Source: Microcella sp. (lineage in GTDB: Bacteria; Actinomycetota; Actinomycetes; Actinomycetales; Microbacteriaceae). From it: a DNA stretch of 59,128 bases. The position numbers and the translations under genes are program-made. How positions within the stretch are numbered: position 1 is the first letter of the stretch; every line of letters starts with the position of its first letter. The stretch is taken from the NCBI RefSeq assembly GCF_030645145.1, contig NZ_JAUSMI010000084.1, positions 1 through 59,128 of the forward strand. The letters run 5' to 3'. Shown here in pieces: positions 2,099 to 49,580 of this stretch. The notes under the pieces are model-generated. The model saw only the letters and a program-made list of their open reading frames with translations. It did no database searches and was not told where the DNA came from.

Positions 2099-2204
2099 CG
2101 GGTCAGGCTATCGGGCGGCCGCCCGCCCGTCTGCGCGCGACCGTGACGCCGCGTGACGCTCCGACCCGCGGCCGTCGCGCGGGCCGCCTAGCGTGGAGGA
2201 CACG

Positions 2205-4259
2205 ATGAGCTCGAGCGCAGCATCCGCCCCCGTGCCCGCCACCACAGTGCACGACTCCCGGCGCTTCCCTCCCTCCGCCGCGTTCGCCGCGCAGGCCAAC
2301 GTCACGCCCGCCGACCTCGCGGCGCTCCCCGCCGACCCGCTGACCTTCTGGGAGGAGCAGGCGCACCGCCTGCCGTGGGCCCGGCCCTGGGTGTCGGTGC
2401 ACGAGTGGGTGCCGCCGAGCGAGGACGACCCGCTGAGCCCGCGGGCGACCTGGTTCGCCGGTGGTGCGCTCAACGCGAGCGTCGTGTGCGTCGACCAGCA
2501 CGTGGCAGCCGGCCGCGGTGATACCGTCGCCCTGCACTTCGAGGGCGAGCGCGGCGACCGCGAGACCGTCACCTACGCCGAGCTGCAGCGCCGCGTCGCG
2601 CAGGCGGCGCATGCGCTCGAGGCTCTCGGCGTCGAGGCCGGCGACCGCGTCGTCATCTACCTGCCCGTGCTCATCGAGACGGTCGTCGCGGCCCTCGCCG
2701 TCGCGCGCATCGGCGCCGTGCACTCGCTCGTCTTCGGCGGGTTCTCGGCCGAGGCGCTGCGGTTCCGCGTCGCCGACACGGGCGCGAAGGTCGTCATCGC
2801 GAGCGACGGGCAGTTCCGGCGCGGAGCAGCGGTCGGCGTGAAGGGCATCGTCGACGCGGCAGTGGCGGGGCTCGCGCACGTCGAGCACGTCCTCGTCGTC
2901 CGGCGCACCGGCGACGAGACCCCGGGCACGCCCTGGATCGAGGGTCGCGACGTCTGGTGGCACGAGGCGGTGGGTGCTCAGCCCGAGCAGCACGCGGCTC
3001 CCGAGCTCGACGCCGAGCATCCCCTCTTCATCACCTACACGAGCGGCACGACCGGGCGGCCGAAGGGCGTCGTGCACACGACGGGCGGCTACCTCGTGCA
3101 GGCGAGCTGGTCGCACTGGGCGGCCTTCGATGCGAAGCCCTCCGACGTGTACTGGTGCACCGCCGACCTCGCGTGGGTGACGGCGCACACCTACGTGCTT
3201 TACGGTCCACTGTCGAACGGCGCCTCGATCGTGATCGCCGAGGGCTCGCCCGACCACCCGACGCCGACGCGGCACGCCGAGATCATCGAGCGGCTCGGCG
3301 TGACGGTCTACTACACGGCGCCGACGCTCATCCGGACCTTCATGGCGCGCTTCCCCGACGGATTCCCCGCGTCGTTCGACCTGTCGAGCGTGCGGCTGCT
3401 CGGCACGGTCGGCGAGGCGATCAACCCGGAGGCGTGGGTGTGGTTCCACGCGAACGTCGGTGGTGGTCTCGCCCCGATCGTCGACACGTGGTGGCAGTCG
3501 GAGTCCGGGGCCGCGATCGTCTCGACCCTGCCCGGCGTGCACGAGGGCGTGCCGGGCGCTGCCGGCGTCGCGCTGCCGGGTCTCGCCGTGCGCGTCGTCG
3601 ACGAGACGGGGGCGGATGTCGCGCCGGGCGCGAGCGGGTACATCACGATCGAGGGGCGCTGGCCCGCCATGGCGCGCACCGTGTGGGGCGACCACGACCG
3701 GTATCGCGCCGCCTACTGGAGCCGGTTCGACGGCCTCTTCCTCGCGGGCGACGGCGCGACGATCGACGAGCGCGGGTACGTGCGATTGCAGGGTCGCGTC
3801 GACGACGTCATCAACGTCTCGGGGCACCGGCTGTCGACGATCGAGATCGAATCGGCGCTCGTCGCGCACCCCCTCGTCGCGGAGGCGGGCGTCGTGGGCG
3901 TCGCCGATGCCGTGACGGGGCAGGCGGTCGCGGCGTTCGTCGTGCCGGTGACGCGGCCCGGTGCGGAGGGCGGCGACGCGGGGGCCGGCGGCGTGGGCGA
4001 CTCCGATCTCGACGTGGCCGCGTGGCGCGCCGCGGCATCGGATGCCCGTGCCGAGCTCGCGGCGCACATCGCGCGGGTCATCGGCCCGGTCGCCAAGCCC
4101 AAGCACGTGCTGCTCGTGCCCGACCTGCCGAAGACCCGCTCGGGCAAGATCATGCGCCGACTCCTCGGCGACGTGCTCGACGGGCGCGAGCTCGGCGACA
4201 CGACCTCGCTGCAGGACGAGTCGGTCGTCCCGGCGATCGCGGCGATCGCTCGCGGGTAG
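2205..4259 (+). CDS. acs: Acetate--CoA ligase (acyl-CoA synthetase)
   Basis: YTSGTTGRPKG AMP-binding loop, DTWWQSE, PKTRSGKIMRR; GGAGGA RBS before ATG 2205. Confidence 0.9.
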   Translation: MSSSAASAPVPATTVHDSRRFPPSAAFAAQANVTPADLAALPADPLTFWEEQAHRLPWARPWVSVHEWVPPSEDDPLSPRATWFAGGALNASVVCVDQHVAAGRGDTVALHFEGERGDRETVTYAELQRRVAQAAHALEALGVEAGDRVVIYLPVLIETVVAALAVARIGAVHSLVFGGFSAEALRFRVADTGAKVVIASDGQFRRGAAVGVKGIVDAAVAGLAHVEHVLVVRRTGDETPGTPWIEGRDVWWHEAVGAQPEQHAAPELDAEHPLFITYTSGTTGRPKGVVHTTGGYLVQASWSHWAAFDAKPSDVYWCTADLAWVTAHTYVLYGPLSNGASIVIAEGSPDHPTPTRHAEIIERLGVTVYYTAPTLIRTFMARFPDGFPASFDLSSVRLLGTVGEAINPEAWVWFHANVGGGLAPIVDTWWQSESGAAIVSTLPGVHEGVPGAAGVALPGLAVRVVDETGADVAPGASGYITIEGRWPAMARTVWGDHDRYRAAYWSRFDGLFLAGDGATIDERGYVRLQGRVDDVINVSGHRLSTIEIESALVAHPLVAEAGVVGVADAVTGQAVAAFVVPVTRPGAEGGDAGAGGVGDSDLDVAAWRAAASDARAELAAHIARVIGPVAKPKHVLLVPDLPKTRSGKIMRRLLGDVLDGRELGDTTSLQDESVVPAIAAIARG

Positions 4260-4332: not shown

Positions 4333-4417
4333 TACCAAATGCAGTCTTGGTAGACCCTGCCCAACGACCTTGCGGGCCGTACAACCCTGACGCGCGGCGT
4401 TCTGACTGCATTTGGTA
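4333..4417. repeat. Fixed-length inverted-repeat element, copy 1
   Basis: Perfect 14-bp arms TACCAAATGCAGTC (4333-4346) / GACTGCATTTGGTA (4404-4417). Confidence 0.85.
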
Positions 4418-4489: not shown

Positions 4490-5020
4490 GTGCCCGAGCC
4501 CCTGCCGATCGACCCGCTCGCCGAGGCGCGTCGGCAGTGGATCGCCCACGGCTGGAGCGACGCCGCCGACGGCATGACCCTCGTCACCTCCGTGATGCGC
4601 GCGCACCAGCTGCTGCTCGCGCGCGTCGAGGGCACGCTCAAGCGCTTCGACCTGTCGTTCGCGCGCTACGAGCTCCTGCAGCTGCTGAGCTTCACGAAGG
4701 ACGGCGTCATCCCGATGGCGAGCGCGACCGCTCGCCTGCAGGTGCACCCGACGAGCATCACGAACACGGTGCAGCGCCTCGAACGCGACGGCCTCATCGC
4801 GCGCGAGCCGCATCCGCGCGACGGGCGGGCATCCATGCTGCTGCTGACGGATGCGGGCCGGGCCGTGGCGGCGCAGGCGACGGCGGCGCTCAACTCCGAG
4901 GTCTTCACCGAGCCGGGGATGCCGCGCGACGACGTCGCGTCGATTGTGCGCGCGCTCGCCCGCTTCCGGGAGAGCGCGGGCGACTTCGTCACCCCGCCGC
5001 CGACGCCCGACCCGCTCTAG
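4490..5020 (+). CDS. MarR family transcriptional regulator
   Basis: wHTH with DGR motif (HPRDGRASML); TACGCT -10 six nt before GTG 4490. Confidence 0.9.
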   Translation: MPEPLPIDPLAEARRQWIAHGWSDAADGMTLVTSVMRAHQLLLARVEGTLKRFDLSFARYELLQLLSFTKDGVIPMASATARLQVHPTSITNTVQRLERDGLIAREPHPRDGRASMLLLTDAGRAVAAQATAALNSEVFTEPGMPRDDVASIVRALARFRESAGDFVTPPPTPDPL

Positions 5021-47983: not shown

Positions 47984-48223
47984 ATGGTGTCGAAGCTTCC
48001 GAACCCGTGGACGGGTCAGCCCGGGTTCTGGGCCGCGGTCAACCGGTTCTTCTACCCGATCGCCGGGCCCGCCGCGGTCGGCATCGGCCGCCCGGAGGAA
48101 CCGTACGTCGCCCCGGCCGACCCGACGTGCCCGCTCTGCGGAGCCCTCATGGCCGATCACGTCATCGAGCGCGGCGTCGGCACCACCGCGACGCGGCTGC
48201 ACTGCCCGCCCGCCGCGGTCTGA
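47984..48223 (+). CDS. Small hypothetical protein with CxxC...H...C motif
   Basis: CPLC-x6-H...HCP; normal codon pattern. Confidence 0.7.
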   Translation: MVSKLPNPWTGQPGFWAAVNRFFYPIAGPAAVGIGRPEEPYVAPADPTCPLCGALMADHVIERGVGTTATRLHCPPAAV

Positions 48224-48283
48224 GCGGGGTCGCAGGCCGCGCGTGCGTCCTGACGAGCCCGATGACTCAAATCCCGTGCGATG

Positions 48284-48364
48284 CCGAATGCAGGCACCCC
48301 CGTAGCGGATCCGCGAGGGCCCGTGGGCGGCAGGCCGTGCTGGGCTGCTTCTGCGTGCATTTGG
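48284..48364. repeat. Fixed-length inverted-repeat element, copy 2
   Basis: CCGAATGCA (48284-92), 63 bp, TGCATTTGG (48356-64). Confidence 0.75.
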
Positions 48365-48378
48365 CAGCGGATCGTCGA

Positions 48379-48490
48379 GGGTGCTGAGCGGGACGGGTGC
48401 TGAGCGATGCGCGATGCGGGACGGGTGCCGAGCGATGCGCGATGCGCGATACGGGACGGGTGCCGAGCGATGCGCGATGCGCGATGCGCG
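48379..48490. repeat. Nested tandem repeat (VNTR)
   Basis: Three GGGACGGGTGCYGA units (48390, 48418, 48453) followed by 2, 3 and 3 GCGATRC heptamers. Confidence 0.9.
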
Positions 48491-48576
48491 AACCAAATGC
48501 AGTCTCGCGTGGCCTGTACCGTTCGAACTCCGGCCGCCCGGGCCCGCATCGGGCCGTCTGTGACTGCATTCGGTTC
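48490..48576. repeat. Fixed-length inverted-repeat element, copy 3
   Basis: GAACCAAATGCAGTC (48490-504) / GACTGCATTCGGTTC (48562-76). Confidence 0.85.
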
Positions 48577-48617
48577 TCGCGCGACGTGCTGGGGCGGGCG
48601 TGGGCCAGGCCGCGGAG

Positions 48618-49580
48618 CTAGTCGAGGGCGACGAGGATCTCGCGCGTCGCCTGCTGCACCGCGGCGTGCAGCGAGCGGAGGGCGGATGCGCGGCGCGCCC
48701 GGGCGCGATCCGCGTCGGCGGGCGCGGTGCCGAGCTCGGCGGCCGCGCTCGCGCTCGCCTCGACGAGAAGGCTGAGCTCGGCCGCGGCCCGGCGGCTCGC
48801 GGCGAGACCTGCAGCGCCTCCGTCGACGCCGATCGCGCGGAGGCTGCGCTCGGCATGGACGAGCCCGTGCGCGACCGAGCGCGGGAAGCGCTCGTCGAGG
48901 GCGAGGAGCTCGATCGCGGCCGCGGCGGTGGGAGCGCCGCGGTGGGCGCGCACGTGCGCCTCGTGGGCTCCGGCGCTGCGGAGCACGAACATCCACCCGG
49001 GGCCGGATTCGGGGTCGTCGGCATGGGCGGCGAGGAGGCGGGCCGTCGCGGCGGCGCGCTCGAGGCGGCGGCCGAGGGCGATGAGCTCGAAGGCGCCGTC
49101 GCGAGCGACCGCGGACTCGATGATCCCGACGGCGAGCGCCGAGCGCTCGCGCACCCAGGCGAGGAAATCGGGGACGCGCGGCTCGACGACCTTCCGCGGC
49201 AGGCGGGCGCGCGTCGCGACGAGCATGTCGGAGAGCTCGGCGGGCAGCGACTCCCTCGCGAGCCGGGCGGCGTCGCGGGCCTCGACGAGCGCGTGCGCGA
49301 TCGACGCGGGGTGGGAGCGGTCGGCGGTGAGCAGGTCGATCGCGGCGCCGCGGCCGAGTCGGGCATCCGCCGCATCGTCGGCCCCGCACGCGCGGAGGAC
49401 GAGTCGCGCGTCGGCCGCGTCGGGAAGGGGGTGATCGCGCGCGAGGAGGAGGTGAGCCTCGACGATGCGGGCGGTCGCGTCGGCCCGCTCGATGCCGCGG
49501 CCCAGGGCGAGGAGGTGCGCGGGCGCGCTCGCGGAGACTCCCGCAGCGCCCCGCACGAGGGGCTCGCCGATGCCCGCCAT
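48618..49580 (-). CDS. Alpha-E domain (DUF403) protein, divergent
   Basis: Two repeats with GRGIERAD and GRRLERAA ER motifs, FPRSV. Confidence 0.78.
   Translation of the reverse strand: MAGIGEPLVRGAAGVSASAPAHLLALGRGIERADATARIVEAHLLLARDHPLPDAADARLVLRACGADDAADARLGRGAAIDLLTADRSHPASIAHALVEARDAARLARESLPAELSDMLVATRARLPRKVVEPRVPDFLAWVRERSALAVGIIESAVARDGAFELIALGRRLERAAATARLLAAHADDPESGPGWMFVLRSAGAHEAHVRAHRGAPTAAAAIELLALDERFPRSVAHGLVHAERSLRAIGVDGGAAGLAASRRAAAELSLLVEASASAAAELGTAPADADRARARRASALRSLHAAVQQATREILVALD

Follow-up and report, generated by a model that had tools for sequence, protein, structure and literature searches.

Inverted-arm repeats of helically phased length bracket an AbiEi–DUF559 nuclease-like gene in Microcella and its relatives and change in step with it

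The window analyzed here is the whole stretch of 59,128 nt from contig NZ_JAUSMI010000084.1 of Microcella sp. (GCF_030645145.1), an assembly of 2.41 Mb in 176 contigs with 71.7% G+C that is labeled G000 below; related genomes are numbered in the same way. Three intergenic copies of an element with two inverted arms lie in it (Table 1). The original prediction, made from the letters of the window, described three copies of 81 bp with a 63-bp spacer between the arms, and these coordinates were confirmed. The motif CCRAATGCA has six exact matches in the window, all of them paired at 63 bp; over 100 shuffles, the count averaged 0.31 and never exceeded two. Arms of 14–15 bp had also been described. 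This is true of copy 1, with perfect arms of 14 bp, and of copy 3, with 15 bp and one mismatch, but the arms of copy 2 pair over 10 bp with one G.T and are longer only if mismatches are allowed. Contigs from two of four public runs contain copy 1 without any difference, and it is therefore no assembly artefact. The linker between copies 2 and 3 (48365-48492) consists of short GCGATGC / GCGGGACGGGTG repeats and is missing in relatives.

Table 1. Elements and genes in the window, with the partner gene located on another contig
Feature	Position	Strand	Remarks
Acetyl-CoA synthetase-like gene, upstream of copy 1	2193..4259	+	PF00501, PF13193, PF16177; context only
Copy 1	4333..4417	.	arms 4333-4346 and 4404-4417; 81 bp in register (4335-4415); between acs and marR
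Copy 1 register arm	4335-4346		12 bp, CCAAATGCAGTC
MarR-family regulator gene, downstream of copy 1	4490..5020	+	PF12802; start codon approximate; context only
Small conserved ORF, ends before copy 2	47984..48223	+	without Pfam match; context only
394-bp gap, convergent genes on either side	48224..48617	.	contains copies 2 and 3, ragged flanks, GCGATGC-rich linker
Copy 2	48283..48365	.	81 bp in register (48284-48364); left arm of GCAGGCAC type, as in G041
Copy 3	48490..48576	.	81 bp in register (48493-48573); GCAGTC-type arms
Alpha-E domain gene, ends after copy 3	48618..49580	-	context only
Partner gene	G000:C146:2007-2861 (L001 1477-2331)	-	product P0001, 284 aa; outside the window

Further copies, which the original prediction had proposed to count by spacer length, were found when the whole assembly was searched. 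The exact left arm occurs seven times, always paired at 62 or 63 bp, and the relaxed core A[AG]TGCA gives ten copies, five with a 62-bp and five with a 63-bp spacer; relaxed-core pairs at other distances (0-199 bp) number six and are scattered. An invariant ruler of 63 bp is thus not maintained, since G000 has both lengths and identical arms stand one or two turns further apart at other loci. The interiors had been called unrelated. In G000 they are indeed near random (19.8 of 56 positions matching against 18.5 in shuffles, best pair 27, 10 copies), but this is no rule for the family, since copies in G015, G099, and G171 have common interiors (for G015, 30.8 against 19.1 shuffled, 17 copies). 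Of 151 genomes in the family, 14 have one related arm type, with 1-36 copies each. A pattern scan of metagenomes returned at least 117 stretches; among the 80 matches listed, the lengths were scattered and most stretches fitted the pattern on a single strand, and we regard them as largely due to chance and made no use of them.

The prediction also held that a protein partner would be encoded elsewhere, and it named DUF559/Vsr-like nucleases among the families to check. Such a gene lies on contig C146, directly flanked by two of the ten copies, and is the only PF04480 (DUF559) match at E<=0.01 in G000. The Pfam families of its product, P0001, are DUF559 (residues 201-277), MTES_1575, and AbiEi_4 (residues 6-47, below cut-off). 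Likeness to AbiEi is also indicated by PADLOC (AbiEi, E 4e-9) and Foldseek (E 2e-6). The AlphaFold2 model built from a 63-sequence alignment (pLDDT 94) resembles both the AbiEi antitoxin 6Y8Q and the homing endonuclease I-Bth0305I (3R3P), the latter through a C-terminal catalytic fold that is matched by profile at E 9e-6 and by Foldseek with a TM of 0.75 of the target. From this model, P0001 is predicted to join a winged-helix module of AbiEi type to a nuclease domain of Vsr/EDxHD type. Residues D214, E224, H231, and D240 are invariant in the 63-sequence alignment and kept in 104 of 106 homologs from the genus. A fold computed from the single sequence reached a pLDDT of 38 and was discarded. 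The gene is free-standing and intergenic, not within an intron or intein, and its neighbors on C146 are a PF01841 (transglutaminase-like) gene and a PF04073 (tRNA-editing) gene; no adjacent AbiEii nucleotidyltransferase toxin gene was found when the neighbors of this locus were scanned. All 43 genomes of the genus that were searched have at least one match to the partner gene. In two close relatives, the ortholog is split over two frames (G007:C53:7779-8629 and G041:C1:173800-174569).

Bracketing by such elements is a common feature of these genes. With a test that scores four arms and counts a score of >=40 as bracketed, 83 of the 107 scorable homologs in the genus were bracketed, compared with 4 of 400 ordinary genes of G000 (maximum score 43). 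The homologs comprise 110 of about 140 listed matches (30 taken as loci and 80 further near-full-length matches), three of which have short flanks. The catalytic residues are kept in all 23 tested among the 24 unbracketed homologs. A second full-length close paralog in G000, on contig C102, is bracketed by a different element family (family B). In distant Actinomycetota, the same layout with unrelated arms was seen at 19 of 40 scorable loci, a count obtained in wider windows and without a matched control. One genome, G121, has 14 copies yet no close cassette gene (best E 1e-18, with no arms beside its three matches). We are highly confident that the DUF559-type protein is the partner of the elements.

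The original prediction that spacing is selected has held up, in the form of a helically phased ladder of lengths with a period of about 11 bp. When the 144 elements of 72 loci were aligned in one register (consensus CACAATTCAGGA), their arm-to-arm lengths fell at 69-70 (40 elements), 79-82 (53), 89-93 (41), 102-103 (8), and 114 bp (2), and the best period over the 72 loci was 10.9 bp (R 0.92). Eleven of the 83 bracketed loci, with a register score of <4, were left out of the lengths; three of these, at 60/61 bp, agree with the ladder, and the register is unsure for several of 74-79 bp and 96-98 bp. A test against a uniform null (0/5000) overstates the case, as neighboring lengths and related genomes are non-independent, and because kin are not independent the support for the ladder comes down to some five or six classes of length. 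Around a single gene, identical arms can span lengths that differ by one or two turns (80/103, 91/114, and 92/102 bp). Core lengths in single genomes are 76-77, 85-87, 97, 100, and 109 bp for family B of G000, 75 (5 copies) and 86-87 bp (29) in G171, and 73-75 (6), 86 (5), and 96 bp (1) in G133. Since lengths step by whole turns within loci and within genomes, the spacer is no rigid ruler, yet both arms are kept on one face of the helix. Looping of duplex DNA between the arms is therefore probable. In Paramecium, the lengths of internal eliminated sequences (IES), together with helical-twist experiments, led to the same reading of such a periodicity (PMC3464196).

The arms follow the protein. 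In a quick tree, searched without bootstrap and read without row L321 (a wrong-frame artefact), the proteins group almost wholly by chromosomal site, of which there are about seven in the genus; arm sequence follows protein clade, and specificity differs almost species by species. At the site beside the tRNA-editing gene, for example, the arm is CCAAATGCAGTC in G000, CGCAACTCAGGA in G004, ACAAATGCAGGA in G015, and ACAAATTCAGGC in G043, and dispersed copies bear the arm of the resident gene's elements. The clearest case is the pair G015 and G043, in which the flanks of elements are mostly 80-95% identical. Ten of the 12 copies in G043 have a same-site copy in G015, and all 20 arms carry the changes G6>T and A11>C; the search patterns left position 11 free in both genomes and position 6 free in that for G043. 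Because these ten sites are common to both genomes and 20 of 20 arms have changed alike, in agreement with the gene that each genome carries, the arms were changed in place. One G043 copy retains the old arms. The same-site interior was the closest among the 19 G015 copies in six of the ten pairs (best 47/52) and not the closest in four, where the element may have been replaced. Over pairs of proteins, which are not independent, winged-helix identity was 0.85 where the arm core was the same and 0.68 where it differed, and nuclease-domain identity was 0.78 and 0.77. At the site of copy 1, G004 has an element with its own arms. The same-site interiors of G000 and G004 gave p values of 0.03-0.8 against shuffles and are too diverged to separate conversion from replacement; element-bearing and ordinary gaps between these two genomes number 5 and 63, a comparison that we did not use as a rate test.

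Elements also come and go. The gap that holds copies 2 and 3 is only 6-7 bp long in G004 and G041, and the site of copy 1 is empty in G041 and G042, with orthologous gaps of 65 bp and 47 bp. Other sites have an element in relatives and are empty in G000, and some of these junctions resemble deletions between short repeats. In X2, a joint that bypasses the cassette has a side of only 30 bases and was left out of account. Comparison of filled and empty sites, suggested at the outset, revealed no target-site duplication in pairs inspected by eye, including the gap with copies 2 and 3. Of 18 mapped element places in G015/G043, three are syntenic in G000, and none of these has an element there. Copying is most evident in G171, where nine fetched copies on five contigs match the copy downstream of the nuclease gene at 73-79 of 86 positions and have ragged flanks of 20-45 bp in common; further copies look alike by eye. 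This near-identity, with its ragged shared flanks, implies that whole elements were copied with flanks and without sharp ends. Finally, arms are found on host coding DNA. In G121 and G201 (L466/L467), tlyA (TIGR00478) contains a complete in-frame element and remains colinear, interior included, with orthologs that lack one. In G133 (L521), from another genus, an element with the arm type of that genome stands at the same tlyA codon position; its core of 96 bp exceeds the others by two turns. The position has been used independently in the two genera. Such in-frame elements were present in 3 of 22 tlyA orthologs read, from two genera and with two arm types. Since they are colinear with element-free orthologs, arms can form on DNA that is already present, for which no transposon model accounts. 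In G004 (L422) and G000, the final codons of a cysteine desulfurase gene also hold one arm.

We give a probability of about one half to the following reading. Repeats of fixed length with inverted arms bracket a resident AbiEi–DUF559 nuclease gene and change in step with it; the protein likely binds both arms on looped duplex DNA and likely nicks it, and repair would rewrite the arms in place and occasionally copy or delete elements. The winged helix would read an arm of 12-17 bp, and two subunits, if the protein dimerizes as its analogs suggest, would meet across a loop of about 5-8 turns. Binding to inverted repeats, with bending of the DNA, is described for AbiEi (PMC7319586), and I-Bth0305I is a dimer with a footprint of about 60 bp (PMC3239194). 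A nick at the arms would start short-patch conversion or recombination, conversion would spread the arm version best bound by the current enzyme, and whole elements would occasionally be copied or deleted. Interiors are constrained in length but not in sequence. Whether the enzyme itself drives the rewriting and copying is, in our estimation, evenly balanced. The copies of G121 that lack a close cassette gene, the split orthologs of G007 and G041, and the 24 unbracketed homologs speak against this reading.

The main rival grants binding only, and we judge it unlikely though far from negligible. The protein would be an AbiEi-type looping repressor or insulator, the elements would be operators re-tuned by mutation and host selection, and the nuclease would have another job or substrate. 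AbiEi autoregulates via inverted repeats (PMC7319586), and helical phasing is typical of repressor loops (PMC3464196). At 18 of 72 loci, the upstream copy is operator-like and ends about 95 bp ahead of where the gene is projected to start. Two AbiEi-only homologs in G000 that have no nuclease domain each stand beside their own dispersed family of short palindromes (6 and 11 copies), so dispersal and upkeep may not need the nuclease in cis. There is also no clear signal of hypermutation. The excess divergence of cassettes was strong at the site beside the tRNA-editing gene, with four-fold identity of 0.40 vs 0.80 and 0.63 vs 0.95. It was modest in the pooled data, where four-fold mismatch was 0.26 for cassette genes, 0.25 for interiors, and 0.19 for neighbors and was higher in 15 of 18 pairs; lower GC3 (0.81 vs 0.93) could account for this excess, and support for local hypermutation is modest. 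Its spread into host genes was rejected, with four-fold identity at 0.80-0.90 at all distances, and mapping of a cut site by divergence gave no peak and a flat profile outside the arms. However, crude gene calls place most copies close to stop codons, in many cases where two genes converge, and not ahead of promoters, and specificity shifts almost with each species. Selection would have to fix two or three identical changes in each of 20 arms and to replace amino acids in tlyA. The near-identical dispersed duplicates in G171 require a copying step, and the catalytic residues are retained almost throughout.

A homing cassette is improbable. Here, the enzyme would cut solo elements as empty alleles, element–gene–element would move in, and solos would be targets or scars. 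The nuclease domain is related to a homing endonuclease, and the G000 solo at C63:19172 is a full cassette in six other genomes (both flanks) and in two more (one flank). Cassette DNA has diverged beyond its neighbors with sharp edges. Against this, the grouping of the quick protein tree by about seven chromosomal sites means that the gene rarely moves, and full-length matches were absent from 50,697 phage records and numbered four among 72,556 plasmid records. A homing cassette would also leave unexplained both the arms that change in place at solos and the tlyA copies.

A single-stranded hairpin, either a REPIN/attC-like DNA substrate or a structured RNA at gene 3' ends, fares poorly and merits little credence. 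Five copies when folded had z-scores of -1.9 to -4.5, and REPINs likewise have preferred lengths and non-identical spacers (PMC3337134), but the folding signal follows from the arms themselves, and a loop closed by a stem gives no reason for steps of 11 nt. The copy-specific compensated flanks of the original prediction turned out weak and inconsistent. Complementarity of this kind reached p<0.05 in 4 of 12 permutation tests and not in the other eight, with outer-flank compensation at p=0.01 in G000 and p=0.03 in G043; interiors are not consistently self-complementary, being mostly at or below the null. Read by eye, the gene-sense strand has mismatches of two kinds, G.T and A.C. Rfam gave no meaningful match in eight loci (one at E 0.17), and the partner is not an HUH enzyme. 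The REP/attC-like single-stranded substrate that had been put forward is thus disfavored, as the ladder and the mostly null covariation tests favor duplex DNA. The claim that the elements are neither terminators nor ordinary MITEs fared better: a promoter and terminator scan around the cassette brought up nothing, with 0 terminator-like sites, no target duplication was seen by eye at filled and empty sites, and the shared flanks were ragged. A classical MITE mobilized in trans by a DDE transposase, with old and decayed interiors, has its terminal inverted repeats, its filled and empty sites, the G171 burst, and the helix-dependent lengths of small transposons (cited in PMC3464196) to recommend it, but it is very improbable given the lack of target duplication at the pairs inspected by eye, common sequence that runs raggedly past the arms, arms that change in place, an interior that is host coding sequence in tlyA, and a bracketed gene that is not a DDE transposase.

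REPIN–RAYT is among the closest known systems. There as here, the enzyme gene is resident and single-copy, has its cognate repeats on either side, and is passed on at fixed loci; non-autonomous doublets of inverted sites are dispersed, with lengths that are preferred and spacers that are not identical; and several enzyme/repeat pairs share a genome, mostly in extragenic positions (PMC3337134; 10.1101/2021.07.10.451892). Repeats duplicate within the genome in both, here as the dispersed G171 copies and lineage-specific sites, for which the enzyme is a candidate copying agent, and resident RAYTs, like the partner protein, group by chromosomal site (10.1101/2021.07.10.451892). However, RAYT is an HUH/Y1 tyrosine transposase, and the partner here has an AbiEi winged helix and a Vsr-like nuclease. 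The arms (CCAAATGCAGTC, CACAATTCAGGA) lack the palindromic form of REP sequences, and the spacers, unlike those stated for REPINs (PMC3337134), are not hairpins; the 11-bp ladder, the in-place arm change, and the arms on host coding DNA are further differences. With the type IV antitoxins AbiEi and Rv2827c (PDB 6Y8Q, 1ZEL), P0001 shares an N-terminal winged helix and an AbiEi-like second domain, and AbiEi operators are likewise an inverted-repeat pair upstream of the gene's own start, with binding putative in our case (PMC7319586). P0001 differs in its fusion to a nuclease and in the lack of an adjacent AbiEii toxin gene at C146, and its arms are far apart, compared with 3-13 bp in AbiEi operators, with a second copy downstream and many elsewhere (PMC7319586). 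I-Bth0305I shares the Vsr-like catalytic fold and the conserved D, E, and H. Its specificity lies in a central 14-bp pseudopalindrome (PMC3239194), whereas here it seems to lie in the distal arms, and the partner gene is free-standing and stays put, with a site length that varies by whole turns. Paramecium IES and PiggyMac offer an analogy only: an evolved periodicity of about 10-11 bp, short elements with free interiors, and looping with a domesticated nuclease, but in eukaryotic programmed excision by a DDE enzyme (PMC3464196). Myt-1 and Myt-8 of M. tuberculosis are short dispersed inverted-repeat families of an actinobacterium, for which the available text names no partner gene or spacing rule (PMC2267715); likened by description only, they may, at a guess, be of the same class.

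A published description of a repeat paired with an AbiEi–DUF559 gene was not found in aimed full-text searches of a literature with few subscription papers. The available part of a REP survey (PMC3733652) makes no mention of Actinobacteria or DUF, and that of a stem-loop survey (PMC2267715) does not describe the pairing while listing unassigned mycobacterial families. The elements work like REPIN–RAYT with an unrelated enzyme and belong neither with MITEs nor with AbiE operons or intron homing endonucleases; the mechanism is possibly new. The common actinobacterial family annotated as "DUF559 / AbiEi antitoxin domain" protein gains a candidate substrate and role, and the short inverted repeats of these genomes gain a candidate partner. 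This looks like an independent origin of the REPIN–RAYT way of life with different chemistry, and it gives a second case in which to test why such repeat populations are kept in bacteria. The pair G015 and G043 is a natural experiment in which a protein and about 20 putative binding arms shift specificity together over a short evolutionary distance, and many natural protein/arm pairs could give a recognition code for a putative two-site, loop-dependent nuclease. A broader view, doubtful at present, is that AbiEi–DUF559 proteins are site-writing enzymes: a dimer would loop phased arms, overwrite arms genome-wide by nick-directed short-patch conversion so that they suit its current specificity, even in coding genes, and seed new copies, a molecular drive distinct from transposition, homing, and REPIN replication and probably widespread in Actinomycetota.

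Several further observations concern the repeats themselves. An inner motif, CGGCGTGTCG / CGACACGCCG, stands at fixed positions within elements of several arm types (L280-L293 in G015, L399-L410 in G043, and G000:C63:19172), and a 10-mer of it has 36 copies in G000. It includes GACAC, which we take to be the WhiA-binding motif, and may be a site for a host factor. The nuclease-less AbiEi-like genes of G000, of about 165 aa (G000:C94:15936-16398(+) and G000:C156:6524-6986(-)), each lie just downstream of their own fixed-length palindrome, the types being GAGGAGTGAC-N13 (11 copies) and TTCCAGAACTACGGA (6 copies). The same genome has fixed-length inverted families for which no partner was found, of ATCGGTCA type (12 copies of 51-52 bp), CGATAAGTGC type (5 copies of 49 bp, often adjoining the TTCCAGAA type), and CCCGAA type (4 copies of 39 bp), and two more distant AbiEi–DUF559-like genes (G000:C43:24218-24950(+) and G000:C25:16214-16976(-)) have none of the listed repeat families nearby. 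Near-identical repeats with a central CTAG-containing core, in 5-7 copies each, are mostly at or near contig ends of G000 (e.g., C4, C58, C59, C68, C85, C94, C111, C123, C135, C138, and C142) and are probably the ends of multicopy insertion sequences. In G004 (C2:532715-604571), seven matches to one arm type lie within about 45 kb of a cassette gene, a cluster that suggests local spread.
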